Below are positions 21,055-58,100 of a stretch of 64,000 nucleotides of DNA, in pieces. The notes beneath the pieces were generated by a model that was not told the origin of the DNA, did not search any database, and saw only the letters and a program-made list of their open reading frames with translations. Location: NCBI GenBank assembly GCA_052327205.1, contig CM126225.1, positions 13,578,001 to 13,642,000 of the forward strand. Direction: 5' to 3'. The position numbers were made by a program, and so were the translations under genes. The first letter of the stretch is position 1. Each line of letters opens with the position of its first letter. Source of the DNA: Somniosus microcephalus (taxonomy: Eukaryota).

Positions 21055-22666
21055 CTATAAGGAAAGAAAATAATTTGTTATAGTCACTGTGTAATTACAA
21101 AAAGTATTTACATTTTAGTAAAGTGGGTCACCAATATAAATGGAGTGATACAAAAATCAACACTTGATTCAACCCATTCTGAATGTGGAAAACATTCCTC
21201 GCGTCAAATTAAATTAGATTTTTTTAAGTTTACAGGACTGATTGATTTTATTTTAAAAAGTAATTTTATTTAGGGGATGAATGATACCAAATGTTGCTAA
21301 AGTACATATGGCATATCTGCCAAATGATTACCTAACTAATCTGTTCTATTCTTTCCCCACCCCCATTTTCACCCTTTGTAGGCATTTCCCCTCAGCTGCG
21401 CAATGATTCTGAGTTTGGAGGGGAAGGATGAAGACTCCTCTACACAATTCTGAGACCAAGGTGGGTGGTTCGCAGCTCCTCAGATATGCAGCAAGACCTG
21501 AACAACAATGGAGGTGTTATTCAAGGTGGATGATAGCCAAAATCAGCTTTCGATATTACATGCTGCTTCCATAAGCATTCCAACTAATGATCTCGCCAAG
21601 AATTGATGAAGCTGCTCTATAGGAATATAAACACAGATTCCAAAGATAAGCAAACCTGGGACCTGAAGTCAATCACCTGTTTGTCTGTCAGGCAATCAAC
21701 TGCCAAAACTAGTGAACATGTATTTTTTCGAACTTCTTCCCATACCCATCTGTGATGGTACATGTTCAAATGGTTTAAAATCTTATACAGTACTACTGGA
21801 TATTAGTTCAAGATGATGGATTGGCACAAGACTGTAATTTGTATAATTAATCATTTTAGAGCACAGACTTCAACAGCTGAACTTGTATTAAGCGGTGGAG
21901 CAGTTTTAGAATCCTAAAGTAACTCAATATTAGGGAGGGGGTGTGGAAATACAATTTATATTTCAGAGAGAATTGTCAAGAGTGTTTTACAAGGTAGGAG
22001 AGATAATGGGAATCAAGCAGGAAGGAAAACTGATGGGAGTGACACAAACATTAGTGGGTGGGCAGATCGAAAGCAAGGATGAAGACAGGAGTTTGGAAAA
22101 GCTTTTTGAAGTGCAGGGAACAGGGAAAGTGTCAAGCCAGAGGGAACTAGGCATAAGGTTTCCAGAGGACGGCCCAGTGACTGGAATAGCATTTCTTTTC
22201 TTTTTTTAAACACATCTTCAACTTTCATCATGACAATCAGTATAAATTAACCCCTAAGTGTATTGAATTAAAGAAAATATAGGACCACATAAAAATCTAA
22301 AAAGGATAAATTTCTCAAAAGCACAACATTTTAATTTCCATAACTGATAATTTAAAAGGTTGGTGTAAAAGAATCATTTCAATTCAGGGCAAATACTTAC
22401 CCATTTTCTGACTTCCACTTATTTATTTTTCTGGAAGAGTTATAATTTGGCATCTCAACCTTGCAGAAATGTGTTTTCATTTTTTAATAAAATGAAACTT
22501 AACGTTACAAATAAGTTTGTGTCATGGGCTTATACGTTCAGTAGTATTTAATTTCAGCCCCAGCTATTTTTGGACGGCAAATATAAGGATTCCCATCTCA
22601 GACTTTTATAAGCTCAAGTCTCTGGCTTGCCTTTACTTTGAAGGGATTTGACAGTTTGCAGACAGA

Positions 22667-22680
22667 CCACTAGATGGCGG
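22667..22680 (+). promoter_or_regulatory. Candidate CTCF site
   Basis: CCACTAGATGGCGG matches the CTCF core consensus CCASYAGRKGGCRS, lies in unique sequence and has tgcag 5 nt upstream. Confidence 0.5.
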
Positions 22681-23939
22681 GGCATGCTGGGTTGAGACGT
22701 CATGAAATTCTAATATTGATTTTTGACAACCAATCCATCAATATATAAAACTGCTGAAGCAGCTGATTTAATATTGACCCACGGTGATGTACTATTCTAT
22801 CTAAATCACTGTTAACCCCCTGAATAACAAACGGTCTTAACATACAAAACATCTGTCTCTTTCAACTATCTGTACAAAGTGATTTACTCTAAATTTCAGT
22901 CTGGCCATTCCTGTTTCATAAAATCCAAATTTTGGATATCAAGCAGGAATGACTAGTACTACAAAACTAATCATGGATTTCTGAAACTAAAACATTGATT
23001 CTGCAATTTACCGAATACAATATTACTAAGGTACTAATCTAATAAAACATTTTGAAGCTACTGAAGTATAACATTTTACATTTAAAATTTTACACGGTGA
23101 ACACAGCTCTCAGCAGTCAACTGCAAAAGCAACTTAGTATGATTAAAATCTAGTTAAGCGTGTCTAAATTATTCATGACACACAAATAACAAGCTGAGGG
23201 TTATAACCTATTCTTACTGGATAGCTCAACAGCTCTAAAAGCAGTCTGAATTTTTGCCTCAACTAACTTTTAACCTCACCTTACTGACCTAGTTTCAGAG
23301 TTCTCCATCTCATATGATGCTATGCGGTTTGTTACGCCTGGCTGAAATCCTCAGGGAAACTATAAATGTCAACATAGGAGGGTTTTTTATTGAGATTTCA
23401 TGACACGTTTTTAAACTTGCATCTTAATGGATATCTTGGAGAGGAAAAAAAAGTATTTAACACCGAATGCCTAAATCTCCCTGTAATTTCAGCCAGCATC
23501 AACCCAGTGTGACGTCATGATCTGATGGCCAGTGACGATTCACAACCTCTCAAACAACTGTGAGCAGCTGGCATCAGTAAATGGAAAACACCAACTTTGA
23601 AACTTCTTGGAACCAGCAAATGAAAGGCTGCCCTTTGTATAAAATTAAAAATCATTTTTACTCTGGAGTTTCCTTTAACATATGCTCCCCTCTGTTGTGG
23701 AGTCTGGACTACAGGTGGCAAGCGTGATTTAACTTTTTAAACAGGGATGGGGGAAAAATATTTGCAGACAAGTTTTAGAATAGTGGTTTATCCTTTCCTT
23801 CATTTTACTCCCCCTCCCCTTTGAGCAAATAAACTTCTGGACTTTCTACCCCGCCCCCGCCACAGTTTGCCACTGTTTGATTAAGGTGGTGATAAATTTA
23901 ACTGCAATGGCCTTAAGTTCATATCAAGATGGTAAGCAA

Positions 23940-24466: not shown

Positions 24467-24652
<186 letters not shown>

Positions 24653-27600
24653 TTAGTCATAATTACTTGCTCAGAGGGTCTGGTGGGTAAAGATCTTGCC
24701 TTGGAGTGCAGAGGCCAGAAAGCTAGTGAACCAAACAAAAGCCATTCTCACAGCTTAGATTTTTAACAGCACTCATTCCAGGTTTTTGTACAGTAGTGAA
24801 GATTAGATAATACGCAGGTGCAATGACTGCACACTAATCATCTTTTTACTTAAATTAAAACAATGTGAAGAATCTACTATCTTCTCATGTTATCATTTGC
24901 CATGCTAAAAACTGAAGTTGCAAATGCACTTGATGGGTTAATATTTTATAAATGTAGTGATTTTAAATGCTTGAGTGCATAATTATACAGCCTGATTTAA
25001 CTTCTTAAACAAGGTCAGGGAAAAAAATATTTGCAGACATATATTTTTAAACTGCGGATTTAGCTGATGTATTGGCCAAGGATTTATTTTGATTTTTTTT
25101 CCCTAACCAGAGACACAAATCTTTAATTGACACCATCTTAAAGTTTTCCTTTTGTTTTTTTTGAGGTGGCAGTGGAGGGGAGGGGTAAAGGAAGATGGCA
25201 AATAGGAAGAGAGTTCATAATCACAAGTTGTAGTCTTGAAGTTTTTATATAAACCTTGGCAGACCGACCCTTGGATACACATTCCTGATCTGGTATGGAT
25301 ATCTTGCATTTATTTTGTGACTCAGAAGACCACGTAACCAGCATTCACAAACAATGCAGCTCTTTTCAGGGTGTGTGCGCGCGTGTGCAGTTCCATACCA
25401 GATTGAATAGCTGTCCACAGAACAGTTTGATGTAACAAATTCATGGCTTTCAGTTTAAAATATCCTTGATGGATTAATGAAAACTGAGCATTGTGATAGA
25501 CCTATAATTGCCGTGTACACCTTATTAGGTTTCTGAATGCTATCAATAAAGATATCAAACTACAAATAGCAATGAAGGTGTTTACTTGCAATTATTTCTA
25601 ATATTTTGCACAGCGAAGGGGGGGGGAAATCACTAAAACAGCTACTAACTCAACAGAATTTCAATATAATTTTACAATCACATGGATAATATTTACAGAC
25701 CCACAAAGTTGGATGCACTAATAGAACAAATGATTGAAGCAGTGGATGACTATGGTGCTGTTCTTTCCACGAGACTATATTAGTAAGGAATCCAGACTTT
25801 GCCGAACTGGGCCTTCATAGGGTTGGAATCAATGTAATTAACAACCCTTTAAAGTGAAATTTAACAAACCATATTACAGGGTTTAATTTTTCCAGGGCGA
25901 TCGGGCGAGGAAGCAGCATTTTATCTGCCACTATTTAAGAATCAAGTTAAAGAGTAAGTTTACAAAAAGTATTCAAAGATTTGTATTTTTACTAGGTCCG
26001 ATTAAGCAGTTTCAAAACACATTTTAATCTTAATGTTGGTTACAAATAAAGTATATACAGAAATCCTATGATTAGCTATTACCGATTCCGCCACCAGAGG
26101 CTGCACTTTATACACATTTGATAAGGTTGGGCTTAGAAAGTGCTAAGTGTTTACTTCTCCCTGCATGCAGGGTTTTACGGTCAAAGTGCCTGAAAGTATT
26201 GTGCTTCCAAACCTCAGTCCCAGATATCCAAAAATTAAAATTCAGCTATCAAATTTAAAATTGAATACAAGCCACAATAGCCAATGTATAAACTGTATAA
26301 CGCAGCAACTTGCCCACCATCACTAAAATACTTTCAGGTTTTAGACCAAATACACTGATGCAGGAGTCTAAGCTGTGAAAAGGACTTTTTGCAAAGAAAA
26401 TTAAACTTTCAACAGTACTAATCAAACTATGTTTAAGAGTCATACAAATCTTTAATCCACTCAACCAGCCAAACAAAGCAAATGGGACAGCCTAGCACTT
26501 TACTACCACATATCTAAGTCAGAAGTACACACTCAGCAGCTGTTTGCCGAGCTGTGACAGAACAAACTACTTACCTTAGATGCTCAACTACTTTAGAGAA
26601 ATACAAGCTGGTTTCTAGATGGCAAAATGGTGTAATTTGAATTATAAATAAAAATTTGCAGGATTTAACCAAACAATTTACAGACACATCTCAATCAGCC
26701 TTACTGATTTTTTTTAAGGTGCAAGCCAATTTACAAAATAGCATATTGATTAGACACTGGGTGCAGACTTAATCTGTACAAGACGAATACTACAAAAACA
26801 TGGTGTGTTATAGAAGTCATTGACTTGTATAACGTATTTGGGTGCATTGTGAAGGGACTCAGACTAGGTTGCTGTACAGATTAAGAATGTAATATTCCTC
26901 ATACAATTATTAGTGAAAGATTTTATATTTATGTTTATTTGCAGTAGCAAGTGCAAGTACCCAGCAAATGGGTAAAATCAACTCTTGGACAATACTACAA
27001 ATTGATATTGAATAGATTTGAATTTTTAAGTAACACAAACAACAAAGTCTCTTCTCAGCATTGAATCCCTAATGGACAACAATTAACACTCAGGACAGAT
27101 GCATTTTAAATAATTTTACTAAGAAAAAAGGTAATGAATATCAAGCAGCAGAATGAACGCTAAACAGAGAAGGAAAATAAGCCTTTTATATTGGTGCACT
27201 GATGACAAAGAGGGATAGTAATTCAGTCTGAAAAAAAAAATTACCACTGCTAAGTTTACCATCACCACAACATCTCCAGGATCAAAATGCTGTAAAAAAG
27301 AAATACCACTTGTTAGGTGGGAACAGTGAAGAAACAAGCGTTGTTTAGCAAAAGAGGACAGCATAAGGTATTAGTGAAGACAGGGGCAGCTTCAGCTTGG
27401 CATACAGCAGGATTATGGCCCATTCCTAGCAGCTATTTTCCTGCCCCATATTTCCATTTCCTTTTCTGGCAGTATGTAGGGAGGTAATGTGGCTTTCTTT
27501 TCATCTCCTGTTTCTAAGTACACTTTCACTCCATGTTTGCTATTTGAAGGATTCAAGGTGTAAAATATACTCAAACTGAAACAGTAAACTCTAAATCCAG

Positions 27601-28505: not shown

Positions 28506-28600
28506 TAACAAAAGCGGTTAAGAAATTTTTACCAAGTTGCATCTTTCTTACTTTACTTGTGGATCTCTTGTTAAAGTGATTAAGTTAGATGATACACATT

Positions 28601-34230: not shown

Positions 34231-36031
34231 AAAGGGAATTTTTTTTTTTTTTAAACAAAGCAGTCTAATATCTGCAGAAGCTCAACACTAGGAAGTGTAA
34301 AGTGTGGTGTAAAGGCAGCATGAGCCTTGTAATACTCAAAAGAAAATAATCAAAACTCAGTTGCACATGGATTAACCAAAGAAGGAGTGATAATTGAGAG
34401 AATGGCACTCAATCGTAGAATGGATAAATGTGCATTCAGTGTCATTGCTGGGCTGTTAGCAAGCGCAAGTCAAGGTGGCAAGCAGGGGGACTAGAATTTG
34501 CCTTGGTGCTCTTGGAGCACAGAAGGAAAGCAGAGGGGCGGGGAGAAGCTGGGGTTTACACTCCTGGCTTCTATCCAGTGACCCTGGTCAAATAACCCAT
34601 CAACCCCACCATATGTGACCAATTTAATAAGGTATTGCCAGCAGCTATGTAATTGCACCCCAATGCAAGTTAACATAATTAGGATCATACAGCGGCATGA
34701 CTCAGTACCCTCATGAAAGGAGTGGAGGAAAGGGAGGAAGAAAATGCTGGCTTTGTACAGTACGCAGCACTTCTACCCACCCGTAATAATTTGTAACAGA
34801 AAAATCATTGAAAAATCAGGCGGTTTCTATACAGTCGCCCGATCTTCAAACACTTGTTGAGACAGAGGGTCCCTGCTAAATTTATGGTTTTCAATTAATC
34901 AATTTTTAGGATAATGCCTTCAGAAGTATTAAAATCAGAGTCTATTGTGTTTGAGGTGGGCAATGTGTTGTCCAGAGAATTTAGTCGAGCAACAGGATGA
35001 TGAGATTGTGCCATCCTGCATTCTGCCCCAATTAATGTAAGATGGCAAGTCTGGTAAAAGACAAGGAGGAAGAATGAGCTGTATCTTGTTAAATGGACCA
35101 AACCAAAACACACATTATAGCAATTTGCTATTAGTGTATTTATACAGGAAGGCTCATGCCTTCAAAAGAACATAAAACATGAACACAAACATAATGGGTC
35201 AAAATATAATGCCCTTCCACTGGATAATTTGCAATTACAGATTGTACTTACAAATTATCTTTCATAATGAACTACAGCCATTGAGAGACAGTGAAATTGT
35301 ACAATTGTAATTAAACTTTATAACTGCGTGTTTACAGTACTGTATATTGAAGGCTTCCAGCATTTCTATACATTTAACTGAATTAATCTGTTAGTTCTAT
35401 TGGTTTGCCAGTAAGGCTTCAGTGTGAGCCCCGATGGATATCACCTGCCCAATTGGAACTGGTGTAAACCAGATGCACCTCAATGAATTTGTGCATACAT
35501 GAAACAAAATATGCTAAGTACACTTGGCATAACTGGGGCAGTTGCACTGACCCTCCCTCCAGACTCCCATATATGATCATGGCACCAAATGGGCACTTAA
35601 TACCTGGAACATGTACAAGTATGTCCTTTCTTGACTGGATCTGGAAACATTTCTGCCTTTGGAAAGTACCTTACCTCTACTTAATTCCATCTGCAGCCTG
35701 GCTGAAACTGAGAATTCACCGTAAGGAACCATGGACATAAATCCAACGTGTAACATTTGGAGATGGGAGTACACTGGCATGCTCATCAGCTGAGCTACCA
35801 GACCTTGGAACTACTTCACAACATTTTTGTTCACTGTTAAGGCAATTAACTATCCCAATATTTGATTTCATGCACAGAAACATCTATGACTTTTTTTTCC
35901 CATCAAGAACTTTTGAAGTAGGCCAGCTTTATACTACAAGCTCACTACAAATAGAATAAAAATTGTCCAAACTCACTAAACAGAACTGTGTAATCACAGT
36001 TAAACATAAAAACTTATTTCAAAAGATTGTT

Positions 36032-37890: not shown

Positions 37891-39478
37891 GCGGTGTCAT
37901 GTGTTGCACATGGGTTTTTCACAACTCAGATCTGCCCAGCCCAGACTATTGCCCATTTCTTTTGGCTGCAAGGGTCCTACATAGAATGAGTTTGTACAGT
38001 TTCATTCCAGTTCTTTTTTAAAAATTATTCCTTCCTGGTGACATGCACCTGCCTAAAATGTGGCACGAGATTGTCAAGCTCACTCAGAGGGTAGATGATG
38101 TGGGAATACCGCACATGCTCTTGAATTTTGGGTGCTGAAGCTAATTGCTGGGGAAGAGGAGATGGAACTTTGCATCTAACCACATTGTATCTGACATGGG
38201 TTTAATTTTACAAAAAAAGCGCCTTAAATTTGCCAGAAGTTATTTTTTGGCAATAATCGTGGGTAAACTTCATTCCATCCTATTGATGCTAGATTTCAAC
38301 AGTATGAACAGTGAAACAACCAGAATACAAACTAATTGCTTCGCCCAATGTAATGTTGTGACACTTCATGTGGAAAAACCAAGCCTGCCCAAGCACATAT
38401 TGCAGGTGAAGACTCATTCAGGTACATTTTTACACACTGGCCCCCAAAGGAAATCAAAAGTTAATCAGATAAAAAATAATCAGAGAGTGAATCGAGTGGA
38501 AGAGCAAACACCACAAGCAACAATTGGAAAGGAGTCTAAACAATCATTTATACAGAGGTGTTTTAATCAAATCAGCAGGAGCGTAACAGCATGCAATTTA
38601 GGAGGGTTACTCACGGGATGCAATACGAAAAAGAGTAATGAAAATACCTTTATACCTTACCTGGGTATTTTTGCTAATATACAACAGAACCTAGGTTCTG
38701 TTCAATGCACAAATAAAATTGTCCTGAAGTAGAAGAAGTTGTGAAATTCTTAAGAACTATTGGAATGTTAATCATGATTGTTTTTCTTAAAACTACAGTG
38801 CACCCACAGCTACATGCACACAAGCCAATGTTAAAGTGTAGGGTCTCATTGCTTAAGCAGTTTTTGGATGTCCTGGTTACAAACAAAAACTGATTAAATT
38901 TAAAAATAGACACTTACCTGATTCTTACCAATAAACTACACAACAAAGCTACATTTTAGTCACCTCAAAGCACTTACCAGTACAGGTACATTTGTTGCAA
39001 TTTTCTTTCACGATTACAAAAGATAAAAAAAAAGAAGCAAGTCATTAATCTCTGGGTCTGTGGCTGTGACTCTTTCCCATTTGGCTGAAATAGGATGGGA
39101 GAAGAGCATTTGTATTATTTATGTTCTAAATCTCCCAAAAAAAGGGGTTGCTAAAAAGAGATCATTTTCCATAACAAGTATGGTTGGGCCATTCTCTACA
39201 GCTGAGACACCATTTCAGTACAAATCTTAAGGGATTTTTTTGATGGGAAAAAACAAAATTGTTGCATTTGAATTTAGGTGACACATAAAAATAAATCTTC
39301 ACCCAAGTTTTTTTTCCACAGAAAGATTTTGCACTTAAAACATTTAGTCGCGCGCACATTGACAGTAAAATTGGTGGCCTCAGAGAATGACCCAGCTATA
39401 CTGAAAATTTATGAAATCACTACATTGAGGCAGGTATAGGAAAAACAAGAGATATCACACTGATACAATAGAAAAAAA

Positions 39479-43887: not shown

Positions 43888-43926
43888 AATCTAATGCAAA
43901 TGTTAAAAACCAGGAGTTAATATTAA

Positions 43927-44334: not shown

Positions 44335-44738
44335 AAGTGGCTAAACAAAGAAGGATTAAAATAGGAAAAAAAATCTCAATGTTGCTTACTTATAGGGATT
44401 CCTGTATTTTACAGGAAAATGTTAAGATTTGGATTCAGGAAGGAAAATAGCAAAAGCACCAGAGGTTTTGGCTTCCTCTGTTTTCTATCACATTACTAGC
44501 TGATGGTTCTAGAATCTAAAACAGCACAAGGTGTAGCATATTCTGGGCATGCAAAACATACTGTGTACATTTGTTCAAAAGCAAATTATTGTAGCTGCTG
44601 GAAATCTGAAATAAAAACAGAAAATGCTGGAAATACTCAGCAGGTCAGGCAGCATCTGTGGAGAGAGAAACACAAGTGTTAACGTTTCATGTCGATGATC
44701 TTTCACAGCAATTTACTTGCACTTCTTTCAACTTAGTA

Positions 44739-45090
44739 CAGGAAACTGTGTGTTATCCGGAGGCTAAATGTCCGGCAAGCTCGAGCCACCGGCAAAAATC
44801 AGGAGCCGTTTTGTTAGGTTTTTTTTCTTTTTGTTGCTTTTTTCTCTTTTCGTTGCTTTTTTCTCAACAGTCAAGCTCTGCAAGGTCTCGCTGAAGCTGT
44901 TGCTAAGCTACAGAGACGCTTGCAAGGTACGGCCGACTGTTTAGAAGTTGTTGCTAAGTAATAGGGTTTGTTGCCAGATACGGAGCTTAAAATCTCCGTA
45001 TGTTTCAACATTAGCGCTGGTTTGTCCGGCAGTTTTGATCTAACGGCAACAGCTCGGTCCCGTCGGTGCCGGATAGCACAAAGTTTCCTG
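44739..45090. mobile_element. Tc1/mariner-type MITE (352 bp), TA TSD, copy B
   Basis: TA|caggaaactgtgtgttatccgg...ccggatagcacaaagtttcctg|TA. It is the reverse-complement homolog of 18915-19248. Confidence 0.9.
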
Positions 45091-45895
45091 TATACTATAT
45101 TCGTTGCTCATGATGCAGTCTCCTCTACACTGGGGAGACCAAATGTAGATTGGGTAATTGCTTTGCTGAATACGTTCTTCAGTCCGCAAACAAGACATTG
45201 AGCTTCCGGTTGCTTGCCATTTTTATTTACCGTCCCACTCAGTCCTCTGCCTCCTACACTGTTCCAATGAAGCTCAAAGAACAGCACCTCATCTTTCGAT
45301 TAGGCAATTTACAATCTTCAACACTGGGTACAACAATTTCAGATCATAACCACTGCTTCCATTTTCCCAGACAACAGAGGCTGGTAATGTGAAATAAAAA
45401 CAGAAAATACTGCAAATATGCTGCCTGGCCGGCTTAGTCTTTCCAAGGTCAACGACATTCTGATTTGCGGAACACCTCCGCAAGCGTGACACCTCCGCAA
45501 GCGTGACCCTGAGTTTCCGGTCGCCTGTCACTTTAATTCTCCGCTCCACTCCCACTCTGACCTCTGTGTTCTCGGCCTCTTACACTGTTCTAACAATGCT
45601 CAACGTAAGCTCGAGGAACAGCAACTCATCTTTCTATTAGGCACTTTACAGCTTTCTGGATTCAACATCGAGTTCAGCCATTTCAGACCATAACCTCTGC
45701 CCCCATTTTTTCAGATGGCAGCTGTTGATTATTCTGCTATACCCATTTACACCTCTTCTAGACCCAACTTTTATTTCTTTACTTGTCCCATTACTGTCTC
45801 CTTTAGCTTTGTAGAATCATACCTTTTGTCATTTAATCACTCCTGCTTTCTACGCCTCTGTACTTGCTTAAAATCTGTTAAATCTCAAATTTTCC

Positions 45896-45932
45896 AGTTC
45901 TGACGAAAGGTCATCGACCTGAAACATTAACT
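45896..45932 (+). ncRNA. Minimal type I hammerhead ribozyme motif (Penelope-associated), stem III mutated
   Basis: agtt-CTGACGA-a-aggtc-atc-gacct-GAAAC-att-aact: intact CUGANGA and GAAA boxes, 5-bp stem II and agtt/aact stem I. The other copies have gaaacgtt. Confidence 0.7.
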
Positions 45933-46179
45933 CTGTTTCTCTCTCTACAGATGCTGCCTGACCTGCTGAGTATTTCCAGCATTTTCTGTTTTTATTTCAG
46001 ATTTCCAGCATCCGCAGTATTTTGCATTTGTATAGATGCTGGTAATGGTTCTGCTGTTGCCATTTACAGCTCCTCTGGAGCTATCTTTTGTTTCTTTACT
46101 TGTCCCATTACCACCCCCCACTGCCTTGCACTATCATCCTTTTTGTCAATTTATCACTCCTGCCCTCCACCCTATCACA

Positions 46180-46718
46180 CCTGGAGTACTGCGTACAGTT
46201 CTGGTCGCCATATTATAAAAAGAATAGAGAGGCACTGGAGAGGGTGCAGAGAAGATTTACAAGGATGATACCAGAAATGTGAGGGTATACATATCAGGAA
46301 AGGATGAACAGGCTGGGTCGCTGAGGGGTGACCTAATAGAGGTCTTTAAAATTATGAAAGGTTTTGATAGAGTGGATACAGAGAGAGTGTTTCCACTTGT
46401 GGGGAAGAGCATAACTAGAGGCCATCAATATAAGATATCACAAAGAAAGCCAATAGAGAATTCAGAAGAAACTTCTTCACCAGAGTGGTGAGAATGTGGA
46501 ACTCACTACCACAGGGAGTGGTTGAAGCAAATAGTATAGATGCATTTAAGGGGAGGCTAGAGAAGCATATGAGGGAGAAGGGAATAGAGGGTTCTGCTGA
46601 TAGATTTAGATGAGGAAAGACGGGAGGAGGCTCGAGTGGAGCATAATCACCGGCATGGACTGGTTGGGCCGAATGGCCTGTTTCTGTGCCGTATATCCTA
46701 TGTAATCCTATGTATGGA
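46180..46718 (+). mobile_element. 5'-truncated CR1 nested in a Penelope repeat
   Basis: HLEYCVQFWSPYYKK...LERVQRRFTRMIP, an atcctatgta tail, and a 6-bp TSD atcaca at 46174-46179 and 46719-46724. Confidence 0.9.
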
Positions 46719-46830
46719 ATCACAGACCTTCCCTTTTGTTCTTCCTTCCCCCCTCTCTCCCCACACCCCCTCCCTATTTTTCCCCTGGCTCTGTACTTGC
46801 TCATAAACGGTTAAAGCTCTAACTTATTCC

Positions 46831-46867
46831 AGTTTTGATGAAAAGTCATCGACCTGAAACGTTAACT
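46831..46867 (+). ncRNA. Second minimal hammerhead motif (C3U variant, one stem II mismatch)
   Basis: agtt-TTGATGA-a-aagtc-atc-gacct-GAAACGTT-aact. Confidence 0.6.
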
Positions 46868-47803
46868 CTTTCTCTCGCCACAGCTTTTCCAGCATTTTCT
46901 GTTTTTGCATGTGTATTTATTGTTTGGCAAGATAACCTTGCTCTTTTGAAGCATTTTTAAATCGATCGTCTCAGAATACTAAACCACAAAACACTAATAC
47001 AAGTCTAATACAGGAACAGAAATCAATTTACCAACCGTTGCATGCCAAAACAGGTTTTAAAAAATCAGTTCACTAGAAAACATGATCATAATGTAAGTCA
47101 GCAAAAACTGGAAAATTAGTGTTAATGCTCCACAATTACCAACATTACCTAAAGGGAATGCCCTAAACCAAATTCAATTTTCCACATTTGGTGAATACTT
47201 CAACTTTGTACATTAACTAATCTGATCCCACAGATCAGAACATATGGATCCAATTAAAACTAAAGGGAAGGATCAAGACAGGGTCCGAGATCCATTAAAA
47301 AAAAATCAGAATTATCAGTAGGATTATTATAGGCCAGAGAACAAAAGCCAAACAAAAAATGATCTTCTATAATCCCAAATGATGACTAAAGCAGCAGATA
47401 ACTGGAACTGAACTTGGCGTACAGTATTCCAAGTGTGGAGAACAAATCTGAAGGATTTCTCTTGCATAAGATGACAATACATTCATCTATCCACAACATT
47501 TATACCTCAGCAAAAACTGAAGGTAACTCTCTCTAGCAAGGCAGTTTTCGAAGAGGCTGTTCTGCAGCATGAAGCAGAGAGGAAAAGAAAAGAAAATCAT
47601 CTCGCCACAGATCCAAAGGAAATTCCAAACAGGGGTCTGAAGATACATATTGAATAACTCCACGATAAACGGCCAGTATGGTCAGATATAAAATGTTGGA
47701 ACAATTTGAAGGTGGTCTCCATCAGTTCCATATCCCCCCTTCAGGATGAATGCAAACCAGCCAGATTCCACGGTTAAGGACAGGCTGGACCTTTTTATAT
47801 GCT

Positions 47804-47916
47804 TTACATTTCAACAGTGACCAGATTTCAAAAGTACTTCATTGGCTGTAAAACGCTTTGGGACTTCCTGAAGTCGAGAAAGGCACCATATTAATATATG
47901 TCTTTCTTTTCTTTCT
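47804..47916 (+). mobile_element. DeuSINE 3' tail fragment
   Basis: caacagtgacc...ttcaaaagtacttcattggctgtaaaacgctttgggac. Confidence 0.7.
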
Positions 47917-49179
47917 TAAACTGGTCCTTCCTAACCCTATTGCTGGCCATCATGAATTAATAGCCAATCCAAAGTCTTCCTCTCCAAGCTCTGTTACATG
48001 TGGAATTCACCAGATTTGTTGAATAAAAAATGGACTGAGAGAGGGAGACTAATTTCTCATCAGAGGGAGGAAAAACAAAAACTTCCAATATCAGTGGAAG
48101 TGCAACCCCTATTACTGTTTGTTGTAGTGTTGTGAAGGAACTAACCCTACTCGAGGCAACAAAGAGAGTTTATTTTCAAGACTGTGTGTAGTTTTCAAAT
48201 CATTGGAAGATATGACAGATAGACCTTTCCAAATAGCTCAGTGAGTAATGGTCCCAGTTTTTACCCCTGCACTTTGGCAAGTTAAATCATTTGAAGCAAG
48301 GCGGCAATGGACATTGCAACTGGCCTCACTGTGCCCAGCCAGCCAGAGTTCACAGACCCAATCACTATGGAATGACCACTACTGGAAAATGCACGAGTGT
48401 GGACATCAGGACTGGATCAGGTTCAGCTTTGATGTCCTGTGTTATCAGTCAGCCAGTAGTCAGTGTCTAGGCTTGCACATGAAGCATGGCTGCTTGAGTA
48501 AATTATCCAAGGGCTGTCAGAACCCACAAAACTAGAACTAAGCATGATTCACCGCTGTCTGCAGAAAAGAAAGTAGACAAAATGTCCATCCATAACCTGG
48601 TACACGTGCATCAATCTCTTGTTCCACCAACTCCAAAAGTCTCGACTTTGAATTGTGTGGAGAGGGGAGAGGTCATTCTAAAGAAAACAAGGCTAAGTTG
48701 GATGACAAGCCAGCACAAGTGTCAAAGCGGCAACAGGTATTTCTCCATGCATTTACATTTATAATGCATGCTGGAAGGAGTGCGAAAGAGAAAAATCACA
48801 GTATCCAGGAAAAGCCCGAATGTGATCTGGGAGCACAGACTTGCATGCGACAGATACAACAAATTCAGATTTGAGAAAAATGTAGGAAGAAGCAATACTG
48901 CCAACCTTTCGAATGTGCAGAAAGTAAATGTGACCTACAAGGGTAGACAGAATGCCATAGAAAATTATAAAGTGGTCTTCAGTCTCACACTCAAACGTTT
49001 GCGCATGGTCCAGGGTACATGGAGAATAAATTGGAAAGTCTGTATTCAGCACTCTCAATTTGACCACATAGAAACACAAAGTTTTCACTATCATTAATAT
49101 CTTTCATTTAGCTCATAAATAAAATGAATGTGGCATATATCGTTTAGAAACATTATTTTACATCAATTCCATTTTTTAT

Positions 49180-49619
49180 GATGAATGTGTGCTCAAGTGA
49201 GCAATACCAGTGCTGGAAAATGAATTATTTTTCCACTTTGGCTATCCAGTGACAGCATCAAGCATTTCCAAGCTGGATATACTATAGAGAAGCTCAAAAT
49301 TAAGTTCCTTCCTCTTTGCTCTTAAGAGAGAAAGGGCTTCACTCCAATCTCAGAAAAGCACCCCACTGAACTGTATGCACGTTTCCATTTCCCACTTCAA
49401 CCATTATGGTGGGAGAGAGACTGCCAATATAATGCCAATTCGTGATAGGTTGTGTTTGTTATGGGACTGCTCCCAAAAAGAGGAACGATGCAACCGTTTC
49501 AAACACGATCCTCAAAACGATCAGGAAATAGAGACTTTCACCCATTACATATGGTCTCAATTCAAACCCAGCTCCGAGAGCTGAAGTGTTAGTGTGCTCA
49601 CTGCATCACCCAGTCCCCT
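49180..49619 (-). mobile_element. Ancient LF-SINE-like element
   Basis: Minus-strand head ggggactgggtgatgcagtgag and end cttggaaatgcttgatgctg...cagcactggtattgctcacttgagcacacattcat, shared with 14703-15082. Confidence 0.4.
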
Positions 49620-49961
49620 ACAATTTTTATTTTTTAAATAATTCCTTTCTATGAGATAACTACTTATACAATTTTTTCCCCAGTCTACACAGGTCAACAG
49701 TCACATCCGTTTTAATTAATGAAATGGATTAAAATACTTACACCCAAGAATAAAGGAAAATAAAAGTGCCAACGCATTAACCATACTTATCTGTCAAATA
49801 GAGACAATGCCTCAGGAAAGCTCCTGATATATTCCGTATCGTTGACTCACAGATTAACAGGAGCCCTGTTCTTGCACAAACTTGTTATGAAGCAAGTTTT
49901 GCCCCACACAGATAATTTGCTACATTTTGCTTACAAACAGGGTATCGGAAAGAAATCTCAT

Positions 49962-50414
49962 CCTTGGATTAGTGGTAGCACTCGCACCTCTGAGTTAGAT
50001 GGGCATGGGTTCCAGCCCACACCAGAGACCTGAGCACATGATCTCGGCTGACACATCAGTGCAGTGCTGAGAGATTGCTGCACTGTCGGAGGTGCCATTT
50101 TCAATGAAATGTTAAACCGAGGCCCCATCTGCCCTCTCGGGTGGGCATTTAAAAGCCCATTGGCACTATAGGAAGAGCAGGTAGTTTCTTCAATGTGCTG
50201 GCCAACATTTAGCCCTCAACCAATATTACTAAAACAGATTATCTAGTCATTTATCTCATGGTGTTTGTGGAACCTTACTGTCTGCAAACTAGCTGCCACA
50301 TTTGCCTACATTATAATAGCGACTACACTTTGAAAACAATCATTGGCATGAAGCACTTTGGGATGTCCTGAGGTTGTGAATGGTGCTATATAAATGCAAG
50401 TTCTTTCTTTCTTT
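49962..50414 (+). mobile_element. DeuSINE (SacSINE1-type), near full length
   Basis: tRNA-like head agtggtagcactcgcacctctgagt, Deu motifs gttaaaccgaggccccatctgcc and tail gctatataaatgcaagttctttctttc. It is an inverted homolog of 43927-44334. Confidence 0.85.
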
Positions 50415-50841
50415 AAACCTGCAACAGATGGAAGTGGGATGGGCCACTGCTCTCGCTGTGGGTGGGGAACTCTTATGCAAGCTATTGGGCTCAAAGAAGT
50501 CTGGATAGAGTCCCAGTTTGCAAAAGAATTCTCAGACATAAATAGCTGCATACTCTGCAAGCATTGCAATTATCAAGTGAATTATGCCAAGACTTTCTTC
50601 CTCCAAAAGTAGAGTTCAAAGGTGTTCAATAACCTTTGTCTTAGCTGCGAACAGATTCAGATCTAGCAGTGGACGGGGTATGGCCTGAATAAATATGGCC
50701 ATTAATAGTATAATCCATCAAAGCAGATGTGATGCATTGGTTCTGCTACACATGTTGCAAGATCATGCAAAGCTGCTAAATAAATTTTCAAGACATCCTC
50801 ATTCGGTAGCCTGTCTCAATTCTTTGTTAACTTTTTAAAAA

Positions 50842-51145
50842 ATTCATTCATGGGATGTGGGCAAGGCCAGCATTTTATTGCCCATCCCTAATTGCTCTAG
50901 AGAAGGTGGTGGTGAGCCGCTTTCTTGAACCGCTGCAGTCTGTGAGGTGAAGGTGCTCCCACAGTGCTGTTAGGGAGGGAGTTCCAGGATTTTGACCCAG
51001 CGATGATGAAGGAATGGTGATATATTTCCAAGTCAGGATAGTGTGTTTGACTTGGAGGGGAACTTGGAGGTGATGGTGTTCCCATTCACCTGCTGCACTT
51101 GTCCTTCTAAGTGGTAGAAGTGGGTTCGGGAGGTGCTGTCAAAGA
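50842..51145 (-). mobile_element. 3' end of a CR1/L2-group LINE
   Basis: ORF 50897..51085 reads GSKSWNSLPNSTVGAPSPHRLQRFKKAAHHHLL, and the tail is atgaatgaat. Confidence 0.78.
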
Positions 51146-51204
51146 AACTGGTGCCAAGTCAACAGGTGAGTATTGAGAGAGGTCAGAGTAAAGAAACAAG
51201 GTCC

Positions 51205-51690
51205 TGGGGATCTGGGTAGCGCATTGAACTATAACAGTAGGTTTGAATCCCACACTGCTCATTGGAAAGAAAATCTGTTTTCTGATGGCTGTAAGGTTTA
51301 TACATTAAATTAATTTATTCTATTCCCCAGCATTAACATCCCCCATTTCAATGAGAATAAAATTAAAAGTTCTTTTAAAAAAAAAAAAATTTTAAAAAAA
51401 TAGCTTGGACAGTTTCAAGTTAATGACCATCGGTCCACAATACAGTTACTCTTAATCTTTATATTTCAGAGGGACGCTCAAGGACAGCTGGTGTATTTAA
51501 CAGAGAATATCACATTATTATGGTACCAAGTCATCTTCTGAGATCGGGTTTAACAAACATTGTTGAGGCTTTACTGTAGCTGGGTATCTATACCTGATGT
51601 GGGATTGTTTGCTGACATCAGGAGATGCTTGAAGCATTCTCTTACTCAGGGCTGCCATCCCTTACTTTGATAAGCACATAAATTCACTAA
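51205..51690 (+). mobile_element. Ancient LF-SINE-like element
   Basis: B-box ggtttgaatcc, body motif tctgatggctgt and 3' end agcacataaattcact. Confidence 0.4.
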
Positions 51691-52720
51691 AACTGTGTCA
51701 ATCTTGAGTTCTTCTACTTCTGCTTGAGCAGGATACAGAAGCCAGCAGCTACAATATCAGACATGGCCGATGAACACACAGTAGTCAAGGTGTTCCTTGA
51801 ATCCAACACCAGTTAGCTTCAAGTTTTAGAACAAGAGCTGGAGAAGCGTACATGAGTTCTGGAGGACTCGCATGCTTCACTTTTGGTCCATGCTTACAAA
51901 TGACCTGTATTCATTCCTCCATTGGACTTTACAATGCAGCTGTGGATTCGGAGGCCTCACTGATGTGTAGTACATCAAATGATGAGAAATAATGAACACT
52001 CAGAAGAAAGGATTCAGAGTCGTGGGCTGTTTTCCAGTATGTTTGAATACAAATAAGGCCATTAGGACTGATCATTAGCACCTTGGATTTACTAAAATCT
52101 TGCGTACTAACTCCAGGAATTTCCCTCTGAGAAACTGAACAGCTCAAATAAGTGACCAGGCTGAAATCAGACCCAATCAAATAGGAAAGGATAGTCACAA
52201 TATACCAAATACTTTACAAGTATATCAACCAAATATAAAATACAGTTTTTTTTAATGATGATCCCAATCTTTCAAGCTCAGCATATCAGTTTCCAATGTG
52301 TGATAGATGGGGAAGAGGTCAGAAAGTTAAGTTCTTCCTTTTTAAGAAATGCCAGTTTTTTTGAATCCTCATTCATTACACAATACTAGAATATGTATCT
52401 AATTACAAGTACTGCATGTCAAAGAAGATTGTTTAAACTAATGTAAAAGAAATCACTAGGGTCTCAAATTCCCTTAAGTGTAAGTTTAGAGCCAAATTCA
52501 CCACCCAGAGAACAGAAAAAAAAGAGGAAAAAAATAGAAACACAGCGAGAATGAGCTAAAATTAAAAGCAGGTTTCTACCTACAGACAGTATGATACAAA
52601 TATCCATTGTTTCCATATTAAACTTTAGAGGGAAACAAACTATAAAAACTATGCACATTTTTATTGTACTTGGACATGTTCTCAAAAACAACATTTTTCA
52701 TAAGTTAAAAAGGTGTTTCA

Positions 52721-52891
<171 letters not shown>

Positions 52892-54880
52892 TTATGTACA
52901 ATGGATAAACATGCAAGAAGTTGCTAATGGGAATGGGGTAGATGGACATCCTAAGGAAACACAATGTCATAAACTGCTCACACAATTTGGGATTATTTTC
53001 TGATGGTGTGCTGTGCATCTTCAGTGCATAACACTTAAATAATAAAAAAAAAGCTGGGTAAAAGGAATGTAAAACAAAGAACTGAAATCAGTAAAACTGA
53101 TAAAACCAAGCTCTTTTTAAAACCATATCCGTCACCTTGACAGCACCAATTTGCAACAGACAACTAAACTTTTATTTTTTAATTTGGTTATGTTGCGTGT
53201 CAGGCTTTTTGTCTACAGATTATTTTAAGTGCAAAATCTGCCCCACCACTAGAAACCAAACACGATCATAGCAAAATCCAGGCTAGACTTGATTGGGTTT
53301 ATAACCAGCATGCAGCCATTATTAACTAAAAATGAAACAGTGAAGTTAGTAAATTTACAAAATGAGCACAAGCACAGATTGTGATGCACTTCATGTGTAA
53401 GGTAACAAAAATGCTGAAAATTAGAATGGAACAGGCCTAGCAACAGGTTTAATAGCAAGAACCATTAGTGCATGTAAGGGGGAGAAGCAGCAAGCATAAT
53501 GTCTCATCTTCCTTACCACTGTGAGTGGTTAACTAGCTACGAACATATACAGTGCTGAATTTCAAGAACTTTGTTCCAATCTTACAAGGAGCAGGATCAC
53601 TAGGGTTGGAGCAAATCTTGCAAGATCTGGCAATAAAAAGGAAATTTTGACCTTAGAAGTGCAATGTTTTGCTTTGTTAATTCAAATGATCTCCCTGGAG
53701 TCGGTATTTTTGTATGCTACGAGTCAACATTCATTCTCCTTGGCCAAAAAGTACAAAAATATACATGGCATTACTGAAGTCACTTCTGAAACAAACTTTG
53801 TTCGGTAAACATTTAAGAGCTTAAAAATAAGCACCCTGCAAAGATTATATGTAGACTCAAAATTCAATGAAGGTTTGTCCTACTGCTAATTAATCACCAT
53901 GTACTGTATAGTCTTCGCAGCCCGAGAGTGGGTTCATATGTGAATGTGAAACTCCATTAGTTATTTAACGAAAAGTCACATCTTGCGAGTTGCTACACTG
54001 TAGTCAAACAAACCTTTTATGATATATTTGGGGGTTAGGTTTATGATAGTGTGTGCTGGAGCTAAACTTCCTCACAGTATACTAATAGGCAAATGGCCCA
54101 TACTGTGTGCCGTATGCACCAAGAGTGCCCAGTATGGTCTGAGTTAGACAATTTCAGGTGGGGCTGTAATAGGATTAAGTGTTCCTGACATTCGGGAAGA
54201 GGACGTTAAAAAAAGATCCATTGATCCCAGTTCTGACCGCTATCCTCCGATGATTCCCACTGAAAAAAATGAGTATGTGGATCTCAGGTGAAGGCAGGAT
54301 CAAGCTTGATCAAGAGGATAAAAGGTAGTAAGTGGAATGTTTTGAAGTTAGTTTCTTTTAACAAAAGAAATAAGGTATAGAAAAGATGGATCAAGTAAAA
54401 TTAAGAAAAAAGTAAAACTGAAGTTGAAAAAATAGCACACAATGGGGCAGGTGAAGAGAAGAATGACACGGCGGGCAGTGTTTAAAGTTTGTTTCCTATT
54501 AAAACTGCACTTTTGTAGCTTAGATTTTATAATTCTAATAGTTACTGCTGACATTAAGTAGTTCCAGCATTTTAACAATGTGTGTTTCCATGTCATAGTG
54601 TGCCAGTGGAAAATTAAATAAAAAAGTCTGCCTGGCCCACGAAAAGACATTTCCCTGGACCTGGCAGCAGTCTTGGACAAGCTCGACACAAAAGAGACTG
54701 CTGGGCAAAGCAGCAATCTTATCCTACGCACGCCATTTTGTTTTGGTATTTGCATCGTGACTTTTCCACCCTTTTCAGGGATGGAGGGCCAAGCACAGAA
54801 GTTGTATGTACACTGCAGCTGAACAGATATCTGCTAACTGAGTGTTAAACAACTAACGCTGGCTAAAACATTTCTTAAAT

Positions 54881-55142
54881 AACAACAACTACTTGTATTT
54901 ATATAGCGCCTTTAACGTAGTAAAACGTCCCAAGGTGCTTCACAGGAGTATTATAAAACAAAATATTTGACACCGAGCCACAGAAGGAGAAATTAGGGCA
55001 GGTGACCAAAAGTTTGGTCAGAGGTAGGTTTTAAGGAGCATCTTAAGAGGAAAGCGAGGTAGAGAGGCCGAGAGGTTTAGGCAGGGAATTCCAGAGCGTA
55101 GGGCCGAGGCAACAGAAGGCACAGCCACCAATGGTTGAGCGA
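54881..55142 (-). mobile_element. L2 3' end
   Basis: aacaacaactacttgtatttatatagcgcctttaacgtagtaaaacgtcccaagg, and ORF 55043..55267 ends LGPTLWNSLPKPL. Confidence 0.85.
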
Positions 55143-58100
55143 CAGTAGTTGACCTTAAAGGTCATAAAAATCTCGTGCCAGCACATCACAGCACTCCAGA
55201 AATGTTGCTGTAATGCAGTACTATGAATCCACTGCAATGGATGGAGAGCCAAGCACAAAACTTGCAAACAAATTTACCAAAGGTGAAAAATACATGGTTT
55301 GTAATTTGTTTTATTGCTGTGTCAGGTTACAGTCTCACTAAAAAATATCTTTAATCTGCAATTACCACAGAGATGTGGAACACAGATAACAGCAGCTGGT
55401 TTAGAGAGCTGAATACAACCATGCTACATAGGTTGGATTTTTAGTACATAACATGCTTAACCAGGATTTATGTATGACAATGTTAAGTACGGAGGTCAAA
55501 AAAGCCAACAGTGTTAAAATGCAGAGTCTCAAGCTGTCATATTTTCCAATCAAAAAATCCTACAGCATTAAATTTACTGCTCATCAAAAGGTGATTATAA
55601 AACAAAAGAGATTTGGGTTTCCTCTAGAGGTCATTTAAAAAAAATATATACATTTCAATTAAATTAGGGAATTACAGCTGGTCCCACCTCCTTGTAATGT
55701 AGCTGGAGTGACAGACATGCTGGTGAGCTTACCGCATCTCTCAGTGCCACACACAATCTTAGAAAAGAGAAAAGGAGCCAGGCTGCAGCAGTAGCCTCTC
55801 TACCCACCTTCAAAGCGGTTGCTCTGGCAGATTAGGAAAATATATTATATATATTTTTTTTTTTTTTTTTTAAACAGACATTTTCACATGTAGTTGTTGG
55901 CAGAATTGCAATAGTGGTGATTTACCAGCAATAATAATGCTACAGTAAAACCAATTTTTTAAATAAGATAATGCTTACTCCTACTGGGAGATCAAATGAA
56001 TGAGATTGCAGTGATACCGGCTCCCTTCCTCAATTGGGCAAAGGAAAGCAAAGTAACGAAAACATCTGTCCTGACAAAGCCTTTATCTCAATACACACAC
56101 TCAGTGGTCATTCTCTAAATTTTGTATTAATTTGAAGAGGTCTTTTTTGAAAAATTATAATTTACATAGTTCACCAAATAATCAGAAAATATATCTAGGG
56201 AGGAGGTAGATCCTAATCACTTGTCACTAGGTATGGCCATCAAACTTTTACTGTACTTGGGTAGAAGGACATTAATTATGCTTCTGGAATTTAAGAGATT
56301 TAAGAGAGAAGCAAAATCAACCCGATGGACTCAAGCTTGTAAACAGCAAAAACCTACATCATTCCAAAATGTAATGAAAGTACGGGTTATAATTGCTGTA
56401 CTTTTTCTTGACGCAGTTCTGTTGAATTTCAAGCTTCAGATCTGTCGGTTATGCATTTCATTGCAGTGAAATCAAATAGCAAATTTAAAATCTGAACCTG
56501 GTGCTACAAAAATTAATCTGGAAAACAAAATTTAAATACTACTGAAAATAATTTCATCCCAACACTGGCCATATAACGAACATTTCAGTTATCAAAAAGT
56601 CAAATTCAAGGAGAAAGCTGTTCATGTCAGTTACAGGAGGGGGAAAAATGAAATCTGGCTAATTGGGAATTTTTCCATTTAGGTCTGAGCTGTAAACCTC
56701 ATATCTATAATTTTAAACTTTACATGGGTCATAAAAGAGGCTTTATTCCCCTTCATCTTCTTGGTGGAGAACATTTGCTTTTTTTCTTTCAACACATGAA
56801 AATACAAATTAACCTTCTTAAACCCGATCTCTGAAGCCTCAATTAAATATTAAAACCACATTATGAAGCTTTCAGGGAAGAAGGAAGTGAGACATTACCC
56901 TGACTGCAATATTAATTAATGCATTAAAAAAATAAACAGACAGATGAAGCAATAGGCTATTTCAAAGCAGTGCAAGTGGAGTGAAAGCATTTCCATACGA
57001 ACCTGGCTTTAAAAACTGGGCTGTCAAAAGAACAGTTAAATGTAACACAAAGTAAGAAACTGTCCAAACACTAATGGTCTGCTTCTGTTCAATTCACTGC
57101 TTGCAAGTAATGTCGACATTAGGTAATAGTGAAAGCACAATGTAAATCCACGATTCAAGACCAGCTAGCTGTAAGTCAGTGCAGTGTGCCATGATGACAC
57201 AATGGAGAAAAGAAAACAAACAAAATATATATTTTTTATATGCATATAAAATATATATATTATATATGTGTGTGTGTGTGTATGAGGATATATCAGGAAA
57301 GTGTGAAAGAAAGGCGGGCAACTACTTTGCCGTTACATGCAAGAGCACTTTAGAACGGTTCCCAAAACAAACCTTATACTTAACTACAGATGACACACGA
57401 TGATGGCTAGGAAGGCCAAATGGTAATGCTACACCATACAGCTACAAGACATGAAATATTTATAGTGCAGGGAACATGCGGCTACTGTTAAATGTCAAAT
57501 CAGCAGCCATATTGACATAACCTGTGTCTGTTTAGGAGTCCACAGATCTTGTGTATGCACAAAATGACAAAGCACAATCTGACTATTGTAAATAATATGC
57601 ACTAGTGCTGCACCAAACTAAACCAGTGAATAGAAAGGGACCAAACATTCTCAGGCTAGGTTGAATAGCCCTTGGAGCACTATACTGTTTCCCCTAATAT
57701 TGGATAATTAGGCTCAAGTCATTTTATAATCTTTTAAAACTGAACTGAGAAAGGGATCAACAAGATTAACAATGAAACTAGTACAACATTCTCTCTTTTT
57801 TTTTAAACTTTGCACATTCAGAATGTCCAGGATGGATCATGAATTGAAAAAGCTTAATTAAAACTAGGGTCAACACCTTAAATACTAGGCATTTCTGAAG
57901 GGGAATTAAGAATCTGCTTTTGCTGCATTTAACAAATTAGTCATTAGAATCCAGAAGGAATATTTTTTTCAGGTTTTAAAAGGTGCAACTTACATTAAGC
58001 AGAGTTGGAAGAATATTACATGTTAAAATTTCCAAGTTGGTTCACCTACGCTATTTGCGTACACACAATCCTAGCGCTAATACTCCAAAAAAAATTCAAG

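Follow-up and report, generated by a model that had tools for sequence, protein, structure and literature searches.

Short frame-breaking exons in introns 2 and 3 of Somniosus microcephalus GPATCH8, in part conserved with land vertebrates, as likely regulators of GPATCH8 dose

In mouse Gpatch8, RBFOX sites flank two cassette exons of the poison type (PMC6811834), and a table in the supplement of PMC8652244 includes the gene, at gene level, among those sensitive to NMD. In blood cancers with mutant SF3B1, part of the mis-splicing is put right when GPATCH8 is lowered (PMC11874996), and depletion of GPATCH8 raises exon skipping in GPATCH8-bound RNAs (bioRxiv 10.64898/2026.06.30.735655), which is the direction needed for feedback through exon inclusion; in the text of the latter, the words 'poison' and 'autoregul' have 0 occurrences.

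We analyzed a window of 64,000 nucleotides from S. microcephalus (contig CM126225.1, positions 13,578,001 to 13,642,000 of the forward strand), in which profile and protein comparisons identified a minus-strand gene as GPATCH8. An earlier note on this DNA had listed seven candidate poison exons in the early introns. Our main reading, to which we assign a probability of about 0.7, is that at least five short exons in introns 2 and 3 break the frame and likely tune GPATCH8 dose; conservation of three of these extends to land vertebrates. One of the seven cassettes (56899-57020) is among the conserved exons, together with four that the note had not named, while its six others stay candidates.

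Conserved frame-breaking exons in introns 2 and 3

The coding exons that frame these introns, the conserved exons (A-E) and the candidates of the earlier note are listed in Table 1. A retrocopy as carrier of the exons was rejected, exon 2 giving one match only in its own genome. By a local self-BLAST proxy over 164 kb that uses no TE library, repeats cover 2.9% of intron 2 vs 10.7-27% of the other introns (21-27% of introns 1, 3 and 5).

Table 1. Features of the GPATCH8 locus discussed in the text, in window coordinates
Feature	Positions	Strand	Description	Support
Coding exon 2	61704..61778	-	75 nt, phase 0-0	single DNA match in own genome
Exon D	61439..61460	-	22 nt, DMKNAS then stop after exon 2, stop codon 47	cartilaginous-fish protein starts
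Conserved non-coding block around exon A	59833..60068	-	two GCATG (RBFOX-type) words kept downstream	blastn vs L012
Exon A	59987..60021	-	35 nt, QLGHNC then stop, stop codon 47; tandem acceptor, weak donor	isoform tails and L012
Exon B	58583..58676	-	~94 nt, stop codon 65; acceptor supported, donor inferred	one database model
Micro-exon C	57003..57020	-	18 nt, PSF then stop, stop codon 44; core of first cassette 56899-57020	
122-nt version of C	56899..57020	-	candidate distal donor	AG..GT present
Candidate 2	55733..55757	-	strong pyrimidine tract	fold z -1.88, 11/200 shuffles as good
Candidate 3	53517..53626	-		AG..GT cassette
Conserved intron end	52817..53047	-	5' of exon 3 acceptor, core ~52834-52872	X11 contig and ORF comparisons
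Coding exon 3	52744..52816	-	73 nt, first half of G-patch	PF01585 positions 2-26, E 5.8e-6
Exon E	48906..48934	-	29 nt, intron 3, frameshifting, stop in exon 6	one model
Candidate 4	38661..38723	-	TGCATG on both sides; further strong donors at 38978 and 38918	
Candidate 5	26575..26614	-	perfect 9/9 donor	
Candidate 6 (25399-25501) with stem	25288..25501	-	weak acceptor; donor 25392-25403 pairs 12 bp with 25288-25299	
Coding exon 4	24542..24609	-	second half of G-patch, four in-frame Met codons 79-86	
Candidate 7	22401..22430	-		fold z -1.49, 15/200 shuffles as good
Coding exon 5	20968..21054	-		

Database isoforms and the vertebrate contig L012 point to five conserved exons, with A, B, C and D in intron 2 and E in intron 3; three of the four stop-carrying exons of intron 2 (A, B and C) recur in land vertebrates. 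The pig tail P0016 fits exon A with 3 base changes in 48, the next best site requiring 16, the stingray model P0110 joins A to C, and amniote-like L012 holds a 35-nt counterpart that is identical at 31/35 positions and has the same splice sites. We rest exon A on these three; the short tails P0056 and P0059, for which the plus strand has an equally good or better hit, are not significant alone. Human K7EQK8 and chimp isoforms end in QLAHIS at this exon, and a cobra isoform ends in QLVQIS. The surrounding block aligns with L012 over 260 columns at 73% identity (blastn E 1e-38; 8e-20 for coding exon 2), and its core is identical at 89/102 positions (87%), compared with 73/82 in coding exon 2. 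For reference, ultraconserved elements are defined by perfect identity of human, mouse and rat over 200 nt.

The tail of micro-exon C recurs in isoform 3 of chimp and orangutan (UniRef n=6, Amniota) and in pig, and a frog has PCF followed by a stop. The Xenopus residues PVFKARFV require 0 base changes in 24. C is spliced to exon 3 after 18 nt in the horn shark (P0125/P0129) and stingray (P0110) models, and, since the Xenopus model P0020 reads beyond the 18-nt donor, a longer form may also exist. For exon B, the proposed site scores highest with the cat tail P0057 among 8371 AG-anchored sites (32 vs 19), with 6 base changes in 36 and 11 at the next best. By sequence comparison, at the DNA level for A and by back-translation for B and C, A and C are conserved across sharks, frogs and amniotes, and B is shared with one mammalian model.

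Conservation of exons D and E was seen among cartilaginous fishes. Exon D carries an ATG 8 nt before its stop and in frame with exon 3 (MHLK-DNIGH), such that a restart codon overlaps the stop; this start is found in 17 proteins from 16 of the 23 cartilaginous-fish species, the window contains this motif a single time, and D was looked for in L012 and not found there. Exon E matches the sawshark residues SHLLSAHSK (P0138) at 9/9 positions and requires 0 base changes in 27; in the model, these residues immediately precede exon 4. Exons B and E come from one predicted database model each. No match above the opposite-strand control was obtained for the tails P0005, P0007, P0008, P0010, P0014, P0015, P0019, P0023, P0058 and P0184, or for a chimaera intron-3 exon (P0116/P0120).

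None of the stops that result from A-E lies beyond exon 6; since exons 7 and 8 still follow, over 50 nt separate each stop from the last exon junction. Like the poison exons of AS-NMD, A-E have a splicing-regulator host and a cassette that leads to a stop; conservation is deep for A, B and C, and for D and E it was seen among cartilaginous fishes.

Cassette density and RNA structure

All seven cassettes of the earlier note are present as minus-strand AG..GT pairs, all introduce a premature stop into the GPATCH8 frame, and all are separated by 360-1878 nt from the closest repeat found by local self-BLAST, in agreement with the TE-poor setting described there. Frame-breaking is nevertheless uninformative, because cassette density equals that of shuffled sequence and 50 of the 59 cassettes found in introns 2-4 by a loose rule are poison anyway. 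These 59 sense cassettes compare with 46 on the antisense strand and 59.9±7.6 in shuffles; under a strict rule, the same introns gave 10 sense and 3 antisense cassettes vs 8.4±2.9 in shuffles, with 30/100 shuffles reaching 10. In the comparison with shuffled background that the note itself had suggested, cassette density is at chance, as judged by a simple consensus count in place of MaxEntScan or SpliceAI scores. The words GTAAG, GTAAGT and GTRAG were not enriched over shuffles either. As for the donors, leniently described as consensus or near-consensus, that of candidate 5 is perfect and four of the seven score 6/9 against MAG/GTRAGT. The pyrimidine tract of candidate 6 is poor (7/16), and no database isoform matched candidates 2 and 3.

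Three of the cassettes had been said to overlap inverted repeats. At six of the candidates, perfect stems reached 7-8 bp at most, which is background (median 8 in 75 random windows), and what stands is the 12-bp stem over the donor of candidate 6, matched or exceeded in 3/75 random windows; its helix appears in both the MFE and the centroid structure (window z +0.69 and -1.00). Long inverted repeats were rejected as gating structures, being TE pairs or low-complexity sequence. Across 32 splice-site windows, none reached z -2. The 150-nt splice-site windows of the five conserved exons had fold z from -0.15 to +2.17, and for the 291 nt surrounding the conserved cassette, 179/200 shuffles folded better (z +1.23). 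By this measure, the splice sites of the conserved exons and the windows of candidate 6 show no excess folding, and the idea of a structure-gated sensor is not borne out.

The full model of the earlier note, in which seven hairpin-gated cassettes sense splicing fidelity, could draw on the perfect helix that buries the donor of 25399-25501, on candidates 2 and 7 folding slightly better than shuffles (Table 1), and on the competition of GPATCH8 with SUGP1 for DHX15 (PMC11874996). With cassettes at chance density, conserved exons that show no excess folding, and conservation seen only at 56899-57020 among the seven, we regard it as very improbable. For most of the other six candidates, an ordinary pseudo-exon is the probable answer, although intron 3 may hold one or two genuine exons among them.

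Possible fates of the transcripts

Under dose tuning, the reading that we prefer, A-E would be included in transcripts of this species, and inclusion would divert these transcripts from the full-length protein, by NMD or by plain loss of product. Hairpins would not be the means of control; this would fall to RNA-binding proteins at conserved flanking words, such as the GCATG words of RBFOX type that lie downstream of A. GPATCH8-DHX15 itself could exert negative feedback, and splicing-fidelity sensing with autoregulation may be part of the system. Models starting at Met79 exist for 19/23 cartilaginous-fish species, 14 of them with at least three transcript accessions, and are consistent with several frame-breaking splice forms upstream.

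NMD is often weak for start-proximal stops (PMC12776119), and all four intron-2 stops, 130-193 nt after the start codon, fall inside that zone. If such early stops escaped NMD and ribosomes restarted, the exons would act as an isoform switch and not as an off-switch: a restart at the exon D ATG would keep the G-patch and lose the first 40 residues, whereas a restart at Met79-86 after A, B or C would yield a G-patch-less protein, unable to activate DHX15 and similar to the paralogues ZNF804A/B. The position of the stops at codons 44-65 suits this possibility, as do the in-frame ATG of exon D that overlaps its stop (MHLK being identical in 16 species), the G at -3 and +4 of Met79, the existence of a paralogue, ZNF804A, without a G-patch (PMC6811834), and the finding that start-proximal stops can evade NMD, with boundaries from 21 to ~100 codons (PMC12776119). 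However, an out-of-frame ATG in strong context precedes Met79 in exon 3, and in LMNA NMD is robust from codon 25, reinitiation not accounting for the boundary (PMC12776119). Moreover, the MHLK identity is not discriminating, since poison exons are highly conserved anyway, and the Met79 and D starts are no evidence of translation given that annotation pipelines choose the longest ORF. We consider a switch of this kind unlikely. The same low odds apply to its broadest form, in which the cluster, which we take to be 450 million years old, is an N-terminal switch between full-length, D-restart and Met79-restart proteins that is set by GPATCH8-DHX15 activity.

RNA reads of this species were mapped to 47001-53200, which, of the exons discussed here, covers exon 3 and exon E. 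This region was swamped by SINE-like reads: the joints listed (15 of 114) were all at SINE-like repeats, and none of these, nor of the 24 loose ends listed from 1655, fell at a splice site. A contig from run X11, which may hold DNA, crosses the boundary between intron 2 and exon 3 with 12 differences in 260 to positions 52788-53047, and genomic ORFs P0004 and P0044 need 2/30 and 6/39 base changes, respectively, in this intron end. Reads of run X20 cover intron 3 to a depth of 3-20, and those of X19, of a library type that may differ, do not cover the intron. Such intronic RNA would be expected if the conserved blocks were decoy splice sites or splicing enhancers that retain intron 2 or steer exon 3, with inclusion of the exons a minor by-product. 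That conservation extends ~150 nt past exon A and ~230 nt upstream of exon 3, and that horse, donkey and several sharks have annotated forms without exon 3 or exon 4, would also agree with such a role. Intronic coverage is normal in a total-RNA library, however, and A, C and D are spliced cassettes in annotated models, themselves predictions, from many other species, so that we find this explanation quite unlikely.

Comparison with known systems

The new elements here are the deep conservation, the number of exons and the exon D stop that overlaps an in-frame restart codon; poison exons of the mouse gene are already published. Yan et al. (2015) reportedly may also list Gpatch8 NMD exons. Our surprise is moderate, because the class is well known and the mouse exons are in print. 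If these off-switch exons have been kept since the split of sharks and tetrapods, GPATCH8 dose would be under old selection. Exons A and C are ones whose inclusion could be forced with splice-switching oligonucleotides to reduce GPATCH8, and the cluster is a small system for deciding if poison exons near the start codon eliminate the mRNA or shift the point at which the protein begins. A search of the accessible literature, outside which most subscription papers lie, for accounts of these exons in sharks or of autoregulation by GPATCH8 listed only PMC6811834 and the review citing it.

The closest system is mouse Gpatch8 (PMC6811834), with the same gene, the same early introns and, as around shark exon A, flanking RBFOX-type words; two exons are named there, whereas the shark has at least five, of which D and E have to date turned up only among cartilaginous fishes. 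Primate GPATCH8 isoforms (K7EQK8; isoform 3, PNI17712.1) share the tails of A and C, of QLAHIS type and PSF. With the AS-NMD poison exons of SR and hnRNP genes, as described in PMC6811834 and PMC8652244, the locus shares a splicing-regulator host, a stop cassette and conserved flanking intron. Unlike those single exons, GPATCH8 has several very small exons, 18-35 nt long, one after another, with A chained to C in two species, its stops lie less than 200 nt from the start codon, and its feedback is putative.

GPATCH8 introns and the cassettes first proposed in them

The gene is identified by a minus-strand G-patch match (52742-52816) together with exact matches to shark GPATCH8 proteins. Exon 1 lies upstream of the window (L003, adjoining DNA) and exons 6 to 8 lie downstream (L008-L009), and introns 2, 3 and 4 are in phases 0, 1 and 0. 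The source genome is 6.4 Gb in size, and repeats cover a strikingly low 2.9% of intron 2, compared with 27, 21, 11 and 25% in parts of introns 1, 3, 4 and 5. Intron 3 holds a block with LINE fragments and inverted SINE pairs, including one of 105 nt with 90% complementarity, as well as a purine/pyrimidine simple repeat of about 2 kb that is open in every frame and broken by N at 36720-37191.

Features of the GPATCH8 region (window coordinates)
Feature	Position	Strand
Exon 2	61704-61778	minus
Exon D	61439-61460	minus
Exon A	59987-60021	minus
Exon B	acceptor 58676	minus
Exon C	57003-57020	minus
Candidate 1	56899-57020	minus
Candidate 2	55733-55757	minus
Candidate 3	53517-53626	minus
Element before exon 3	52817-52872	minus
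Exon 3	52744-52816	minus
Exon E	48906-48934	minus
Inverted SINE pair	44568-44672 / 45934-46038	
LINE/SINE block	40600-46900	
Candidate 4	38661-38723	minus
Simple repeat	35994-38021	
Candidate 5	26575-26614	minus
Candidate 6	25399-25501	minus
Exon 4	24542-24609	minus
Candidate 7	22401-22430	minus
Exon 5	20968-21054	minus
Intron-5 alternative exon	4138-4260	minus

The earlier note had proposed an array of at least seven candidate poison cassettes in TE-poor sequence of introns 2-4. The seven that it named all carry AG and GT, create an early stop and lie away from local repeats; taken alone, presence and an early stop mean little. Using a simple consensus rule in strict and loose forms, with block-wise dinucleotide shuffles as control and the simple-repeat and N region 35991-38000 left out, we found no excess of such cassettes: the strict rule gave 10 in sense, 3 in antisense and 8.4±2.9 in shuffles (10 being reached in 30 of 100), and the loose rule gave 59, 46 and 59.9±7.6, with the frame broken by 50 of the 59 sense cassettes. 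Donor words were likewise not enriched in introns 2-4. Strong minus-strand donors at 38978 and 38918, near candidate 4, lie in repeat-free sequence with TGCATG at 38818 and 38595, and of the unproven sites, those in the 38900-39100 region are the best placed to mark a poison exon in intron 3.

Conserved frame-breaking exons

Real exons were sought through database protein isoforms, including members of protein clusters, whose tails or starts derive from alternative exons and were mapped back to the introns. Exon C follows exon 2 as the tail PSF in pig and in chimpanzee/orangutan isoform 3 (UniRef n=6, Amniota) and as PCF in frog; AG-anchored PSF* has its sole site at 57020 among 8380 sites on both strands, and PVFKARFV of Xenopus model P0020 fits with 0/24 base changes. 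In horn shark (P0125/P0129) and stingray (P0110) models this sequence joins exon 3 after 18 nt, which defines the exon's extent, and the donor of the 122-nt form (candidate 1) is a candidate only. The earlier note was correct about the locus and about one exon, at candidate 1. Its remaining six are unproven: none matched a mapped isoform, but this approach can pick up an exon only if it terminates a short protein or provides a start, and the lack of a match does not disprove them.

Exon A corresponds to the tails QLAHIS in human K7EQK8 and chimpanzee isoforms and QLVQIS in cobra, its acceptor region differs from pig P0016 by 3/48 changes (next site 16, control strand 15), and A-to-C splicing occurs in Xenopus and stingray models. 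When the window was compared with L012, an amniote-like contig and the one vertebrate contig out of 342 pattern hits in a metagenome scan, the top match was the non-coding block around exon A (260 columns, 73%, E 1e-38), with coding exon 2 behind it at E 8e-20. In both sequences exon A measures 35 nt, with 31/35 identity and shared acceptor and donor; the core is identical at 89/102 positions, and two GCATG words are retained downstream. At 8564-8619, L012 also has an alternative acceptor, 56 nt upstream of exon A, that matches pig P0016; the aligned position in the shark lacks an AG.

The exon D start MHLK-DNIGH, which has one mapping site in the window, occurs in 17 proteins from 16/23 cartilaginous-fish species seen; in the exon-2 frame the exon reads DMKNAS*, and an ATG in frame with exon 3 lies 8 nt before this stop. 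A search for it in L012 found nothing. The exon B acceptor matches one cat model (score 32, next 19, among 8371 sites; 6/36 base changes, next best 11), and we infer its donor at 58583. Exon E matches one sawshark model with 0/27 base changes, and in a related-species contig its region differs at 7/385 positions, versus 105/3092 in four neighbouring contigs, a weak hint. Models starting at Met79 are present in 19/23 cartilaginous-fish species, 14 of them with at least three transcript accessions, implying that more frame-breaking forms exist than could be read. The exon cluster is ancient and real and probably regulatory, of a known kind, and already known for this gene in mammals.

Between the likely branch region and the acceptor of exon 3 lies an element conserved in several vertebrates; genomic ORFs from other vertebrates fit it with 2/30 and 6/39 changes. 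A contig from the distant sequencing run X11 spans 52788-53047 with 12 differences, X11 depth being absent over most unique intron-3 bins. Horse and donkey have annotated variants that skip exon 3 (P0011, P0054), and several sharks and rays have ones that skip exon 4 or exons 4-5. Intron 5 carries, directly before the zinc-finger exon, an in-frame 123-nt alternative exon (41 residues; weak acceptor) that is 95% identical to bamboo shark P0175 and found too in skate and catshark models. Chimaera models P0116, P0120 and P0082 include an intron-3 exon without a match in Somniosus microcephalus, which suggests lineage-specific turnover of such exons, and P0095, annotated in the chimaera, is a diverged copy, 100 residues long, of exons 3-5 of GPATCH8, possibly a partial duplicate.

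RNA structure and RNA reads

The earlier note had further raised the possibility that structure gates its cassettes, three of which it described as overlapping inverted repeats; for the conserved exons the folds and stem lengths do not support this. Of the 32 windows of 150 nt at splice sites, none had a z-score as low as -2; the windows at the five conserved exons ranged from -0.15 to +2.17, and the 291-nt region around exon C gave +1.23. The longest perfect stems, 7-8 bp, equalled background. The exception is candidate 6: its donor forms a 12-bp perfect stem with sequence lying some 90 nt further downstream, a length attained in 3/75 random windows. This helix appears in both MFE and centroid structures, its windows nonetheless scoring +0.69 and -1.00, and gating there is at best a possibility. 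With 20 shuffles, z was -2.2 for candidate 2 and -2.6 for candidate 7; 200 shuffles gave -1.88 and -1.49.

RNA reads were compared over the intron 3 region. Run X20 read intron 3 from the minus strand at depth 3-20 in unique bins, and run X19 was near zero. Among the 15 of 114 joints listed for intron-3 reads there was no splice junction, the joint and loose-end tables being full of SINE-like reads. Splicing of these exons in Somniosus microcephalus is thus a prediction.

Predicted consequences of inclusion and the mouse poison exons

Unproductive splicing that lowers full-length GPATCH8 is the most likely reading (probability roughly 0.7). Inclusion would introduce an early stop and preclude full-length protein, with or without NMD. 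Exons D, A, C and B place their stops at codons 47, 47, 44 and 65, ahead of the G-patch or inside it, and the several junctions downstream fit NMD under the 50-nt rule. All four also lie less than 200 nt from the start, where NMD is reported to be frequently weak, the limit differing between genes from about 21 to 100 codons (PMC12776119). Translation might instead, though improbably, resume at the ATG overlapping the stop in exon D or within the Met79-86 cluster; the presence of these start codons favours such a restart, and the bias of annotation towards the longest ORF and an ATG out of frame in exon 3 speak against it.

If unproductive splicing operates, GPATCH8 may feed back on its own exons, as its class and a preprint reporting more exon skipping upon GPATCH8 loss would suggest (bioRxiv 10.64898/2026.06.30.735655); its DHX15/SUGP1 role is summarised in PMC11874996. 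Literature searches under GPATCH8 or KIAA0553 listed no paper describing the shark exons or autoregulation of GPATCH8.

Mouse Gpatch8 is described as having two ultraconserved poison cassette exons that flank the G-patch exon and are themselves bordered by RBFOX sites (Chapman et al. 2019, PMC6811834); PMC8652244 restates these exons and places the gene in its NMD-sensitive list. RNA-binding proteins are more likely than hairpins to control the shark exons, given the RBFOX sites beside the mouse exons and the GCATG retained downstream of A. The mouse pair may have counterparts among shark exons A-E.
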